Below are positions 12,809 through 58,936 of a stretch of DNA of 64,000 bases, piece after piece. The number at the start of each line of letters is the position of its first letter. Position 1 is the stretch's first letter. Source of the stretch: an uncultured Acidimicrobiales bacterium (GTDB taxonomy: Bacteria; Actinomycetota; Acidimicrobiia; Acidimicrobiales; SZUA-35); contig CAVQVO010000002.1 of the NCBI GenBank assembly GCA_963717115.1, positions 640,497 through 704,496 of the forward strand, written 5' to 3'. The notes beneath the pieces were generated by a model. It saw nothing but the letters and a program-made list of their open reading frames with translations, made no database searches and was not told where the DNA came from. The position numbers and the translations under genes are program-made.

Positions 12809-14661
12809 TCAGGCCGTGGTCCCGAGGTAGGCCGCCTGGACGTCGACGTTGGCCTGGACCTCGTCGGGTGTTCCCTCGGCGATCACCCGACCCTGGTCGA
12901 GGGCGTAGATGCGATCGCTGATCCCGGTGATGAAGTGGAGGTCGTGGTCGATGACCAACACGCCGGCACCGATGGTGGCCGCCATGTGACGGACCTGTTC
13001 GATCATCTCCCCGGACTCGGCATCGCTCATGCCGCTCGTCGGTTCGTCGAGGAGGAGGAAGTTCGGGCTCATGGCCGCGGCCCGGGCCAACTCGAGGCGG
13101 CGCGAGTTGCCGTAGTCGAGTTCGCCGGCCCGCCGATCGCGGTGGTCCCACAGACCGGCCTCGGCGATGAGGGAGTCGATGTCGGGCCGCACCCGGCCGG
13201 TGCGGTGTCTCTCGGCGACCCGGGCTGCGACCTCCACGTTCTCGCGAACCGTCAACGACGCGAAGAGGCGGAGGTTCTGGAACGTCCGGACGATCCCCGC
13301 CCGTGCGAGACCGTACGACGGCGTGCCGGTGAGGTCACGATCGGCCAGCCCGAAGCGACCATCGGTCGGGGCCACCATGCCGGTGATGACGTTCACGAGG
13401 GTGGTCTTCCCCGCTCCGTTCGGACCGATCAGACCGACGATCTCGCCGGTCGAGGCCCGCAGGCTCGCATGGTCGAGGGCCCGGAAGCCACCGAAGTCGA
13501 CCGTGAGGTCGGTGGCTTCGAGCGTGACCGGATTCGGATCGACCGTCTCGGGCAGGGGCGCGGGTCGGGTCTCGTTGCCCCGACCGAACCGCCGGTAGAG
13601 CCACTGATCGAGCTCCCAGTCGTCGAGGAGACCCGACGGCCGCAGGATCATGAAGCCGAGCATGGCCAGACCGAGGAAGATGTCGCTCAGACCCTCCCGG
13701 AAGACGACGTTGGCGATGGTGCCGTCGAGCCCGAGACCGAAGAACTCGTAGCCGGTGGTACCCAACCGACGGGTGATCTCGCGGCCGGCGGTGATGATCA
13801 CGACGCCGACGAGCGACCCGGAGATCGCCCTTGCGACCCCCGACGATCAGCATCACGAGCGTGAGGAGCGTGTAGTCGAAGAAGAAGAACTTCGGCGTGA
13901 TGTTGCCGACCGAGTAGACCCGCAGACTGGCGGCGACGGCCACCACGATCACCGAGATCAACAGCGCCGCCATCTGCTGAACCTGCGGGTCGACGCCCAT
14001 CGCCCGGGCCGCGAGATCGTCCTCCCGGGCCGCCTGGGCCAGCCGGCCGGGCCGGCTCTGGGCGAACAGCCGGGCGGTCACCAGGGCCAGCCACGAGCGC
14101 CAGGTAGATCGGCCAGCGGCTGTCGAGCGTGGTCCCGATGCTGAACGACAGGCCGGCCCGGTCACCGCCGGTGAGGTCGGTCCAGTTGATGGCGAGCTCG
14201 TGGGTGACGAACAGCAGGGCCAGGGTGATCACCGTGGCCGACACCGCACCCGACGACGCCCCGGATCGGGCCAGACCGAGACCGACCACCACGGCGACGA
14301 CGAGGGTGACCCCGACGGCCACGAGCCCGGCGACCGTCGGACTGAGGTGGACGTCGGCCAGGCCCCACGGGGCGTTGCGGATCACCGTGCTCTTGCGGGC
14401 CGGGGCGATGGCGAGAACGGCGAAGGCGTAGCCGGCCACGGCACCGAACCCGATGTGACCGAACGACAGCACGCCCGTGTTGCCGATGTAGATCTGGAGG
14501 CCGACCACCATGACGGCGTCGATCAGCATGGCCGTCACCAGCTGTTCGGACGAGCCGCCGATGACGGCGGTGTAGGCGAGCCCACCGAGCACGAGGATGG
14601 CGAACTGGGCGAGTGCTCCCCCGATGGGGAAGGCGAGGTCGCGGCGGGCGAGTCGGAACAC
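12809..14661 (-). pseudogene. branched-chain amino acid ABC transporter, fused permease (LivM-like) and ATPase (LivG-like); two +1 frame disruptions
   Basis: The LivM sequence is spread over three frames. These are 14661 to about 14090 (MFRLARRDLAFPIGG...SRWPIYLALV), about 14090 to about 13829 (LALVTARLF...LVMLIVGG) and about 13829 to 12809. The last segment reads ISGSLVGVVIITAGRE, then the LivG Walker A GPNGAGKTT, the LSYG-type signature and a Walker B LLLLDEP. The span is 1853 nt, which is 3n+2. Confidence 0.85.
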
Positions 14662-14662
14662 G

Positions 14663-15550
14663 TCAGACCCTCTCGGCTCGCCGCACGGTGATGAGCCCCT
14701 GCGGTCGGAAGATGAACAGGAGGGCGATCAGGGCGAAGACGACGCCGTCGGTCAGGCTGGCGACGCTCCCCGGGAGGTTCGATCGCAGGATCACCTCGGC
14801 CAGGCCGAGTGCGAAGCCGCCGAGCACGGCGCCCTTCAGCGAGCCGAGGCCACCGATCAGCGCGGCCAACACTCCCTTCAGCATCGGCGTGGTTCCCGCC
14901 CCGGGACTGGTCTGGCCGGCCCGCATCAGCCAGAAGACGCCGGCGATACCGGCCAGGAGGCCCGACAGGATGAACGCCCCGCGGATCACCCGGTCGGACT
15001 TGACCCCCATGAGCCGGGCGGTGTCGAAGTCCTCGGCCGCCGCCCGCAGCGACAGACCGAACATCGTCCGCTGCAGCAGCAGGGCCGTGAGGCCCAGGGT
15101 GATCAGGGTGACGACGATGACGATGAGGTCGAAGGTCTCGAACGAGATCGATCCGACCCGGAACGTGTCGGTGATCCAGCCCGTGCGGTCGAAGCTCTTC
15201 ACCGACGCCGAGACGTACATCAAGAAGCCGGCCTCGACCACGAAGTGCACACCGAACGAGGTGAGCAACATCGTGAAGTCCGGTGCGCCCCGCACCCACC
15301 GGAAGGCCACCTGTTCGATCACCACCGACGTGAGGATCGAGGTCACCAGGATCACGGGAACGATCAGGTACCACGACCGGTCGCTGATGAACATCCAGTA
15401 GGCCACGTAGCCGCTGACCGTGATGAGCTCGCCATGGGCGAAGTTGACGAGGTGCATCACCCCGAAGATCACGGCGATGCCGAGCGCCAGGAGCGCATAG
15501 ATGCTTCCCCGACCGAGACCGTCGACCAGGTTCTGGATGAGTTGGTTCAC
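14663..15550 (-). CDS. livH: branched-chain amino acid ABC transporter permease (LivH-like)
   Basis: This is a 295-aa ORF with the typical start MNQLIQNLVDGLGRGSIYALLALGIAVIFGVMHLVNFAHGE. It is polytopic. Confidence 0.9.
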   Translation of the reverse strand: MNQLIQNLVDGLGRGSIYALLALGIAVIFGVMHLVNFAHGELITVSGYVAYWMFISDRSWYLIVPVILVTSILTSVVIEQVAFRWVRGAPDFTMLLTSFGVHFVVEAGFLMYVSASVKSFDRTGWITDTFRVGSISFETFDLIVIVVTLITLGLTALLLQRTMFGLSLRAAAEDFDTARLMGVKSDRVIRGAFILSGLLAGIAGVFWLMRAGQTSPGAGTTPMLKGVLAALIGGLGSLKGAVLGGFALGLAEVILRSNLPGSVASLTDGVVFALIALLFIFRPQGLITVRRAERV

Positions 15551-15616
15551 GCGTCTGCTCCGGTCATTGGCAACCCGTCGGGTTGCTCGTTGGCGCTCGG
15601 GTCACCGGCTCGGACG

Positions 15617-57233: not shown

Positions 57234-57328
57234 GCTCGGGACTCTACTTGGGGCATCATGAACGTTGCGGCCCTCCTCGTGGCTGTCGTCACCCGGCGGC
57301 GCTGCGGAACGGCCCGAGGAAGGATCTC

Positions 57329-57649
57329 ATGACCGACCACACCACCAGGATCTACCGGGTCACGATCCGGGGACGGTTCCGTGACCTGACGGAACGGGCC
57401 CGCGCCTCACTGGTGAAGGCGGCCCCCGAACACGACATCTTCGTGTCGGCCTACACCGTCGAGGGCACGCTCACGTACGACCACCGGATCGACTTCTTCA
57501 ACCTCCGATACGAGGTCCGCACCACCTCGCCCGACGAGGATCCGGCGGCGCTCGCCCTCGTCGAGGCCGAGACCTTCCTGCACACCCTGGGGCTGGGCCA
57601 CGGGCCACTGACGACCAACGTGGTCGACATGGCCGATCTCACGTCGTGA
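57329..57649 (+). CDS. small conserved-looking hypothetical protein (106 aa)
   Basis: The ATG at 57329 follows GAGGAAGG. The sequence MTDHTTRIYRVTIRGRFRDLTERARASLVKAAPEHD... has protein-like composition. I do not recognise the family with confidence. Confidence 0.55.
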   Translation: MTDHTTRIYRVTIRGRFRDLTERARASLVKAAPEHDIFVSAYTVEGTLTYDHRIDFFNLRYEVRTTSPDEDPAALALVEAETFLHTLGLGHGPLTTNVVDMADLTS

Positions 57650-57652
57650 TCG

Positions 57653-58936
57653 TCACTCGTCCTCGTCGGGCTCGCGGTCGCTGGCCCGGATGAGGACCTC
57701 CCCGATGCTGTGGCGAACGATGGTCCGGATCTCGATGTCCCAGCCGTCGATGGGCAGCGACTCACCGGCGGTCGGCAGCCGTCCGAGGTGTTCGAGGACC
57801 AGACCGGCGACGGTGGCGTAGTCCCCCTCGGGCAGGTCGATGTCGAGGTCGATGAGATCGTGGACCGGGAACTTGCCGGGAAGGACCACGCTGCCGTCGT
57901 CGTTGCGAACGACGGTGTCGAGATCGACGTCGGTCTCGTCGTAGATCTCCCCGACGAGTTCCTCGACGAAGTCCTCGACGGTCACCAGGCCCGACGGCTC
58001 CCCCGTGCTCGTTGACCACCAGGGCCATCTGGGTTCGGCGCTGCTGCAGGTCGCGCAGCGCGCTGAGGACGTGCGCGGCGTCGGGGAAGACGGGGAGCTC
58101 GCTCGCCGCCGCTCCGACCGGCTCGTCGTCGCGGTCGACCAGATCGCGGAGATGGACGAAACCGACCGTCCGGTCGAGATTGGCGTTCTCGGCAACGGGG
58201 GCTCGCGAGAACCCCGAGGCCTTCAAGACGTCGAGGGCGTCGCCGACAGCTCAGCTCGGCATCGAGGACCAGGACGTCGGACCCCGGCACCATCACCTGG
58301 TCGAGTCGGCGCTCGGCCACCTCGAAGGCCCCGTCCATGATGCGACGCTGTTCCTCGGGTGAGCGTCTCGTGGAGCGCGACCATGTCGCGCAACTCCTCC
58401 TCGGTGATCTCCTCACGCTGCACCGATCGGATCGGCGCCCATCAGCCGGACGGCGAGATCGGTGGAGTGTGACAGCATCCACACGATCGGGCCGGGTGAG
58501 CTCGCGAGGCCACGTCGAGCGGTCGGGCCATGAGCAGGCCCCACTTCTCGGCCCGCTGCATCGCCACCCGCTTCGGGGCCAGTTCACCGAAGACGAGGGT
58601 GAAGTACGACAGCACCAGCGTGACCACCACGATCGAGGTGGGACGGGCGGCACCCCCGAGGAACCCGAGCGGTTCTTCGAGCGGCTCGGCCAGCGAGACG
58701 GCGGCGGCCGCCGAGGCCAGGAACCCGGCGAGGGTGATCCCGATCTGGATGGTGGCCAGGAACTGGTTGGGCTGGCGCGCCAACCTCGCCAGGATGGCCC
58801 CGGTCGACGACCGCTGCTCGAGGCGCTGCAGTTGGCTCTCGCGCAACGACACCAGGGCGAGCTCGGTTCCGGCAAAGGCGGCGTTGACGATGACGAGCAC
58901 GGTCACGAGGATGAGTTGGGGCCACACGTCGCTCAT
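57653..58936 (-). pseudogene. CNNM/CorC/HlyC-type membrane protein (DUF21 TM domain, CBS pair and CorC_HlyC domain); six +1 frame disruptions
   Basis: The protein reads through frame hops at about 58500, 58490, 58422, 58359, 58249 and 58002. The segments in order are listed below.
- MSDVWPQLILVTVLVIVNAAFAGTELALVSL...GELAPKRVAMQRAEKWGLLMARPLDVASR
- LTRP
- IVWMLSHSTDLAVRLMGADPIG
- VQREEITEEELRDMVALHETL
- PEEQRRIMDGAFEVAERRLDQVMVPGSDVLVLDAEL
- VGDALDVLKASGFSRAPV...ALVVNEHG
- EPSGLVTVEDFVEELVGEIYDE...IRASDREPDEDE

The span is 1284 nt. Subtracting 6 gives 1278, which is 426 codons. Confidence 0.85.

Follow-up and report, generated by a model that had tools for sequence, protein, structure and literature searches.

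Consensus indels that fragment genes are known from long-read genome and metagenome assemblies, especially at coverage below about 40x (PMC9262707). IDEEL is a measure of such fragmentation, and proovframe is a tool for correcting it (PMC9262707, bioRxiv 10.1101/2021.08.23.457338). Here we analyzed a 64,000-nucleotide stretch of DNA (the window) in which otherwise well-conserved genes are repeatedly broken by changes of reading frame. The window belongs to a 23-contig, 5.07-Mb metagenome-assembled genome (MAG) with 69% G+C from an Ilumatobacteraceae-like member of the Acidimicrobiales, referred to here as G000. Judged from the sequence comparisons presented below, the frame breaks are very probably errors of the assembly consensus and not mutations of the organism.

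Frame breaks in the window

The window was aligned by MAFFT with the syntenic region of a sister assembly, G002, which is 84% identical to G000 at the nucleotide level, and extra bases were placed from this alignment. The kinase block is not present in G002, and the comparison there was carried out by tblastn with proteins of G001 and of G006. The assemblies of the relatives G002 and G004 are long-read-style, and G006 is a short-read MAG. In addition, frame switches were called ab initio using a Viterbi caller based on codon usage, which considers same-strand switches and none at a stop codon. A search of a collection of 5.8 billion proteins found no closer, same-species assembly; the best foreign GH65 protein was that of G002, with 90% amino acid identity. 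The initial annotation had described 21 frame changes, all of which are present, each within about 15 nt of where it had been placed:

13826, (-): extra base (+1), LivM-type permease / LivG ATPase frame (GAGAT[C]GCCC versus GAGAT-GCCC in G002, frame switch)
14087, (-): extra base (+1), LivM-type permease (alignment with G002, frame caller, Pfam)
17485..17505, (-): +1 shift, lipoprotein signal peptide / mature Peripla_BP_6 binding protein (three-frame reading, Pfam)
25846, (-): extra base (+1), TPR protein gene (GGCGA[C]GGTCG versus G002, frame caller, Pfam)
37150..37165, (+): -1 (or two +1), C-terminal tail of Ser/Thr kinase 1 (frame caller, tblastn)
38422..38460, (+): +1, homologue of a 522-aa protein of G001 (tblastn frames 2 to 3, frame caller)
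38678..38690, (+): second +1, same homologue of the G001 522-aa protein (tblastn frames 3 to 1, frame caller)
40059..40062, (+): +1, gene for a 420-aa TauE-like membrane protein (tblastn frames 1 to 2, frame caller)
40204..40207, (+): second +1, same TauE-like gene (tblastn frames 2 to 3, frame caller)
42695..42698, (+): +1, gene for a 358-aa protein (tblastn frames 1 to 2, frame caller)
54907, (-): extra base, GH65 phosphorylase gene, close to its 3' end (alignment with G002)
56414, (-): extra base, GH65 (alignment with G002)
56460, (-): extra base, GH65 (alignment with G002)
56606, (-): extra base, GH65 (alignment with G002, frame caller)
56921, (-): extra base, GH65, N-terminal domain cut off from the rest (alignment with G002)
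57990, (-): extra base, CNNM/CorC-type gene (alignment with G002, frame caller, Pfam of the G002 orthologue)
58243, (-): extra base, CNNM gene (alignment with G002)
58357, (-): extra base, CNNM gene (alignment with G002)
58427, (-): extra base, CNNM gene (alignment with G002)
58488, (-): extra base, CNNM gene (alignment with G002)
58505, (-): extra base, CNNM gene (alignment with G002)

The claim that 20 of these 21 events behave as one extra base is borne out by the MAFFT alignment with G002, by tblastn and by three-frame reading. Entries with a single coordinate are the extra bases in the MAFFT alignment; in the kinase block, tblastn with the G001 and G006 proteins places the +1 frame steps at about 38460, 38686, 40060, 40206 and 42697. 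The remaining event, the first kinase break, had been described as one missing or two extra bases, and the coding signal at 37150-37165 does move by -1/+2. All three forward frames are open over this interval, and the kinase tail enters the frame of the downstream small protein without a stop. The pieces around 13826 match the Pfam families BPD_transp_2 and ABC_tran. Near 17490, the signal peptide of the lipoprotein (MTSKRLLAVLCALAMLAAACGG...) lies one frame off the mature binding protein; the shift falls in a GTDDGG repeat linker where G002 differs by 38 nt, so that the exact base is not locatable. The GH65 protein recorded for the window's contig has 535 aa and lacks PF03636, and most homologues have about 770 aa. 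A candidate additional break at 19022 was rejected as an error, because G002 has the same junction.

Comparison with orthologous loci, which had been proposed as a check, showed that the frames of G002 are intact at all comparable sites in the window, with unbroken orthologues of GH65 (782 aa), CNNM (444 aa), LivM and the TPR protein. Long neighbouring genes described as uninterrupted, including the PP2C/SpoIIE gene (43526-45643) and pckG (45811-47640), are single-frame segments. As the initial annotation also held, the shifted segments contain no in-frame stops, the coding segments being contiguous, and they show no decay: the mismatch rate in the insertion clusters is 0.14-0.15 versus 0.16 elsewhere (274-kb set, see below). 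The clustering that it reported is real, but it is not limited to a few local blocks, since the phenomenon is genome-wide. With 0.33 breaks per kb, the window exceeds the genome average only about twofold. If the breaks are consensus errors, four error patches would happen to fall in the window, each extra base shifting a well-conserved gene into the next frame.

Genome-wide extent and sister assemblies

In the whole genome, the Viterbi caller detected 728 frameshift-like junctions (556 of +1 and 172 of -1), which are found on all large contigs at about 11-15 per 100 kb and are 1.8 times denser within 10 kb of contig ends. The caller recovered 45 of the 92 insertions defined by alignment (49%), and together with the 728 calls this sensitivity implies about 1,000 coding insertions genome-wide. 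The 172 ab initio calls of -1 are Poisson-distributed (VMR 1.03) and probably combine natural long overlaps between genes with a small number of true deletions.

The breaks extend to essential single-copy genes. The canonical dnaA-dnaN-recF-gyrB-gyrA locus (contig C15, with gyrB and gyrA at 59.5-64.2 kb) contains six of them, one in dnaN, two in gyrB and three in gyrA, and the reading frames needed number two for dnaN, three for gyrB and four for gyrA. Pfam profile positions run on across these breaks, as in DNA_topoisoIV, which matches at positions 1-300 and then at 303-431.

For a wider comparison, 516 kb of G000 were aligned with G002, in a first set of 274 kb and a second set that served as a replicate. 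Gaps of 1 nt (394, of which 201 have the additional base in G000 and 193 have it in G002) far outnumber gaps of 3 nt (72). In G000, 92 insertions could be assigned by frame, and deletions were few: about 4 were assigned in the 274-kb set, and in the second set their class fell below the ten most frequent, which gives a ratio of insertions to deletions of about 10:1 or more. In G002, the frame-assigned events were 78 insertions versus about 20 deletions. The sister assemblies also carry +1 insertions of their own: G002 has four in the Peripla_BP_6 gene opposite positions 16.5-17.3 kb of the window, where G000 is intact, and G004 has two in the kinase operon, where G006 is intact. In the 274-kb alignment the insertions are strongly clustered, with a variance/mean of 3.4 in 1-kb bins and 52% of neighbour distances under 300 nt versus 5.6% for a Poisson process. 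The clusters of G000 and G002 do not coincide (2 shared 1-kb bins versus 3.7 expected, rho -0.06).

These data bear on whether the breaks could be real, as products of very recent pseudogenisation or of a burst of +1 insertion mutagenesis in the lineage. The extra bases do stand in the deposited sequence, and frameshifts without other decay are what would be expected of very young pseudogenes. However, the insertions come without accompanying stops or deletions, number about 1,000, and recur as independent sets with the same context signature in the sister assemblies. Moreover, dnaN, gyrB and gyrA, which lie at the replication origin, together contain six breaks, and real insertion mutagenesis, which the initial annotation had offered as the alternative to poor consensus, is not compatible with sliding-clamp and gyrase genes broken in this way. 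We consider a biological origin of this kind highly improbable.

Sequence context of the inserted bases

A CpG was created by 83 of 170 insertions (49% versus 24% expected, p about 2e-12), and all four subsets, drawn from both G000 and G002, show a significant excess. A CpG bias common to both assemblies points to a signature of the pipeline. No association with homopolymers was found: only 25-40% of the insertions (about a third) sit beside an identical base, compared to 48% for random placement. Proximity to CGATCG, also remarked on, characterizes 13% of the sites in G000, 6% in G002 and 4% of random positions; an association with CGATCG or GATC was rejected, because the two assemblies do not agree on it. 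Local G+C content was likewise dismissed as a cause, the difference being negligible (0.691 versus 0.686).

A shared slippery or stimulatory motif was sought around the insertion sites and none was found. This result, together with the straight reading of G002, G001 and G006, which lack the sites, stands against any decoding that bridges the extra base, whether programmed +1 ribosomal frameshifting or the reading of quadruplets such as CGGN. Such decoding would account for nearly all events being +1 and for the good conservation of the proteins past each shift, but one stretch (376.6-378.1 kb of contig C2) has as many as 16 insertions in 1.5 kb, every one of which would have to be decoded. In the GH65 gene itself, both genomes read in-frame CGG as a normal triplet (ANR, EER), and quadruplet decoding of CGGN was rejected on this ground. 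We give this explanation practically no credence.

Another possibility lies within the artefact explanation, namely that the patches are strain-polymorphic and that the consensus wrote both alleles consecutively, producing +1 insertions outside homopolymers. The events are indeed insertion-only, patchy and mostly non-homopolymer, and in the first set 25 of 27 unambiguous insertions adjoin the third codon position, the context-corrected expectation for the 1|2 junction being about 8. In the replicate set the proportion was 11 of 13, but the codon-phase test on this set alone was not significant (p = 0.14). Furthermore, C/G transversions make up 52% of the implied allele pairs and transitions only 17%, which does not resemble a natural SNP spectrum, and the implied change is synonymous no more often than by chance (61 versus 60.7). 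A systematic bias of the caller toward writing CpG accounts better for the base pairs, and we regard the writing of both alleles as rather unlikely.

Overall, the reading favoured in the initial annotation, a locally poor consensus from an insertion-prone technology, fits the genome-wide spread, the broken essential genes, the independent sets in the sister assemblies and the CpG signature. The G000 consensus would then carry about 1,000 spurious single-base insertions, located in kilobase-scale patches with a local rate of up to about 1% and separated by tens of kilobases of clean sequence. The patches may reflect a consensus or polishing step with too little or too mixed read support, perhaps because local coverage was low, a contig end was near or strains were co-assembled, and the caller would tend to write an extra C or G, making CpG. 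Because clustered insertion errors occur throughout the genome, the contig should be polished, and the breaks can be explained without new biology.

Until they are polished or frame-corrected, the gene calls, completeness estimates (90% for G000 and 79% for G002) and findings of "pseudogenes" or "split genes" in G000, G002 and G004 are unreliable. Other oddities of G000 should be judged against a background of roughly one spurious insertion every 5 kb, rising to about 1% inside patches. There is a slim chance that the error pattern is itself informative. CpG-creating insertions adjoining third codon positions, with patches placed differently in each sister MAG, could mark tracts of co-existing strain variation or a DNA modification that disturbs base-calling. 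If this is true, the microdiversity or methylation of an uncultured Acidimicrobiales population would be readable from the patches. Bolder still would be to take a few of the breaks as real, such as the kinase tail entering the downstream small protein.

Comparison with known systems

As in prfB-type programmed +1 frameshifting, a +1 step is needed for the full protein in G000. Unlike the prfB type, the sites lack a conserved motif, are not common to orthologues and occur many times per gene. The reductive pseudogenes of the Mycobacterium leprae type are similar in that many genes are interrupted yet recognisable. In G000, however, the interruptions include essential genes and are not accompanied by stops, larger deletions or relaxed divergence, and the breaks in its relatives are at other positions.

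The closest likeness is to long-read or under-polished assemblies. As in these, indels of a single base divide conserved genes between neighbouring frames throughout the G000 genome, errors are probably worse where support is poor, the estimated completeness is lowered, and several MAGs with few contigs from the same genus are affected. On the other hand, the long-read literature emphasizes homopolymer indels that are often deletions, whereas insertions dominate in G000 by about 10:1 or more, most of them outside homopolymers, with half creating CpG and with kilobase-scale patches at about 1%. The error profile is atypical of textbook long-read error and lacks the homopolymer association that is classical for nanopore, 454 or Ion Torrent data, and this non-homopolymer, CpG-creating, insertion-only pattern may interest the maintainers of long-read MAG pipelines.

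Frame breaks in the window

The initial annotation had listed 21 frame disruptions in four blocks of the window, nearly all +1 (one extra base). All 21 stand when examined by alignment with the sister assembly G002, by tblastn, by three-frame reading and by coding signal, and 20 of them are indeed +1. The window corresponds to C2:640497–704496 of assembly G000, which comprises 5.07 Mb in 23 contigs with 69% G+C and a completeness estimate of 90%. The named relatives of the window's pckG are from Ilumatobacteraceae and Acidimicrobiales metagenome-assembled genomes (MAGs), and a search of the protein collection found no same-species assembly. 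The genus includes few-contig assemblies (G001, 6 contigs; G002, 10; G004, 8) as well as short-read MAGs in many contigs, for example G003 and G006.

Most of the window is collinear with G002 at 77–87% nucleotide identity. Pairwise MAFFT alignment of the two, which included the full GH65 gene, placed single extra bases at 13826, 14087, 25846, 54907, 56414, 56460, 56606 and 56921, and in the CNNM region at 57990, 58243, 58357, 58427, 58488 and 58505, agreeing with the positions first proposed to within about 12 nt. The orthologue comparison that the initial annotation had called for showed that G002 encodes GH65 in one frame of 782 aa and CNNM/CorC in one frame of 444 aa. In the protein collection, GH65 homologues mostly have three domains and about 770 aa; the product recorded for the window's contig is a fragment of 535 aa that lacks the N-terminal domain. 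A Peripla_BP_6 lipoprotein has its signal peptide one frame off from the mature protein at about 17490. The linker after this signal peptide (17440–17540) carries a short acidic GTDDGG-type repeat and is 38 nt different from G002. Pfam searches served to check the gene names (liv-type ABC transporter, TPR, Pkinase, TauE-like, CNNM, and SpoIIE/PP2C with GAF and PAS). Each of the long neighbouring genes reads in a single frame, as had been described.

In comparison with G002, twelve other single extra bases are intergenic or at gene ends (4287, 7833, 16292, 26240, 30478, 30514, 35546, 35573, 42978, 47652, 54055 and 59464) and are either errors or natural indels. If they are errors, the insertions extend beyond the four blocks.

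The kinase block is a row of genes spanning 7.2 kb. G002, otherwise collinear, lacks it; it is conserved in G001, G004, G006 and G008.

Genes of the kinase block (window 35730–42940)
Ser/Thr kinase
Small secreted-looking protein
522-aa protein without a Pfam hit
134-aa protein
420-aa TauE-like membrane protein
270-aa kinase-domain protein
358-aa protein

With G001 and G006 proteins as tblastn queries, the window frames step 2-3-1, 1-2-3 and 1-2, at about 38460, 38686, 40060, 40206 and 42697. The one event that had been read as a missing base (−1, or +2) is reflected in the coding signal, which moves by −1/+2 at 37150–37165. None of the three forward frames contains a stop here over about 340 nt (37081–37420). 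The kinase tail appears to lead, via a Thr/Pro-rich linker, into the frame of the small protein downstream, for which G001 and G004 have a separate gene. The junction is either a real fusion or the result of two nearby insertion errors. The kinase operon shows two extra-base events in G004 and none in the short-read MAG G006.

Spread through the genome and in sister assemblies

A codon model trained on 735 long ORFs was used to segment the whole genome by a seven-state Viterbi procedure. It called 728 same-strand frame switches at which the upstream frame does not close with a stop codon (556 +1 and 172 −1), on every large contig at about 11–15 per 100 kb; thus, the breaks are not peculiar to the four blocks. 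Because ordinary gene junctions are biased the other way (882 −1 versus 394 +1), the +1 excess is not an artefact of the caller. The caller recovers 45 of 92 alignment-defined insertions, which places the true number of coding insertions near 1,000. The +1 calls are over-dispersed (40 bins with at least three events versus about 16.5 expected), and the −1 calls follow a Poisson distribution. In the 10 kb next to contig ends, insertion density is raised 1.8-fold.

We aligned C2, the window's contig, with G002 contig C6 over 274 kb and then over a further 243 kb. Together, the two sets contain 201 one-base gaps with the extra base in G000, 193 with it in G002, and 72 three-base gaps, which is the opposite of what coding-sequence evolution produces. 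When gaps were assigned by which genome changes frame, G000 had 92 insertions; its deletions numbered about 4 in the first set and formed a class below the ten most frequent in the second. G002 had 78 insertions versus about 20 deletions. The G002 events are located at sites that are unbroken in G000; four of them, for instance, fall in the binding-protein gene that lies opposite window 16.5–17.3 kb. In the first set, the clusters of the two genomes do not coincide (2 shared 1-kb bins versus 3.7 expected), and therefore the sequence itself is not the cause. The densest patch holds 16 single-base insertions relative to G002 in 1.5 kb (C2:376591–378060; about 1%), and the mismatch rate in patches does not rise. 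Clustered +1 events of the same kind, at their own positions, were also seen in G002:C6 (loci L009–L032 and L122–L141) and G004:C4 (L119). The low completeness estimate of G002 (79%) is probably due in part to such insertions.

Essential genes at the replication origin

The canonical dnaA-dnaN-recF-(DUF721)-gyrB-gyrA row lies on another G000 contig (C15:56963–64164; L012 1964–9165) and contains six frame breaks, five of them +1 and the one in dnaN −1. As a result, dnaN occupies two frames, gyrB three and gyrA four, and in all three genes Pfam domains and profile positions continue over the breaks: the N-terminal and then the central and C-terminal domains of DNA_pol3_beta; HATPase_c, DNA_gyraseB, and Toprim with GyrB_C; and DNA_topoisoIV positions 1–300, then 303–431, followed by the GyrA_C propeller blades. 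Six such breaks are incompatible with life and therefore cannot be the real sequence of the cell. Real pseudogenisation is excluded by these broken genes, by the number of breaks across the genome and by their independent recurrence. Recoding is likewise excluded: orthologues do not share the sites, the sites have no motif in common, and in-frame CGG codons in the affected GH65 gene are decoded as ordinary triplets.

Signature of the insertions

All four bases are found among the insertions, and only 25–40% of inserted bases touch an identical base, versus 48% under random placement; the insertions are not homopolymer-length errors. The earlier remark that several lie next to CGATCG does not hold up. 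Of the 170 insertions defined by alignment in the two assemblies, G000 and G002, 83 create CpG, either as a G placed after C or as a C placed before G, versus 24% expected; this excess reaches significance in all four subsets, which come from both assemblies. A context bias common to two independent genomes speaks for an origin in the sequencing or consensus pipeline.

Unambiguously placed insertions adjoin the third codon position in 25 of 27 cases in the first set, far above expectation (context-corrected, about 8 at the 1|2 junction), and in 11 of 13 in a replicate that alone is not significant, giving 36 of 40; flanking context does not account for this codon-phase bias. An initial reading of the bias was that, at sites of strain polymorphism, the consensus contains both alleles. 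Against it, C/G transversions make up most of the allele pairs that this would imply and transitions only 17%, and the corresponding changes are synonymous no more often than chance, so we keep this idea as a minority sub-hypothesis only.

Locally poor consensus, the first interpretation offered for the window, is supported by the genome-wide count, the broken essential genes and the independent events in sister assemblies. Long-read consensus indels are established to fragment genes, especially at low coverage (PMC9262707). The feature is an assembly artefact with an unusual profile: insertion-only, CpG-creating and patchy.
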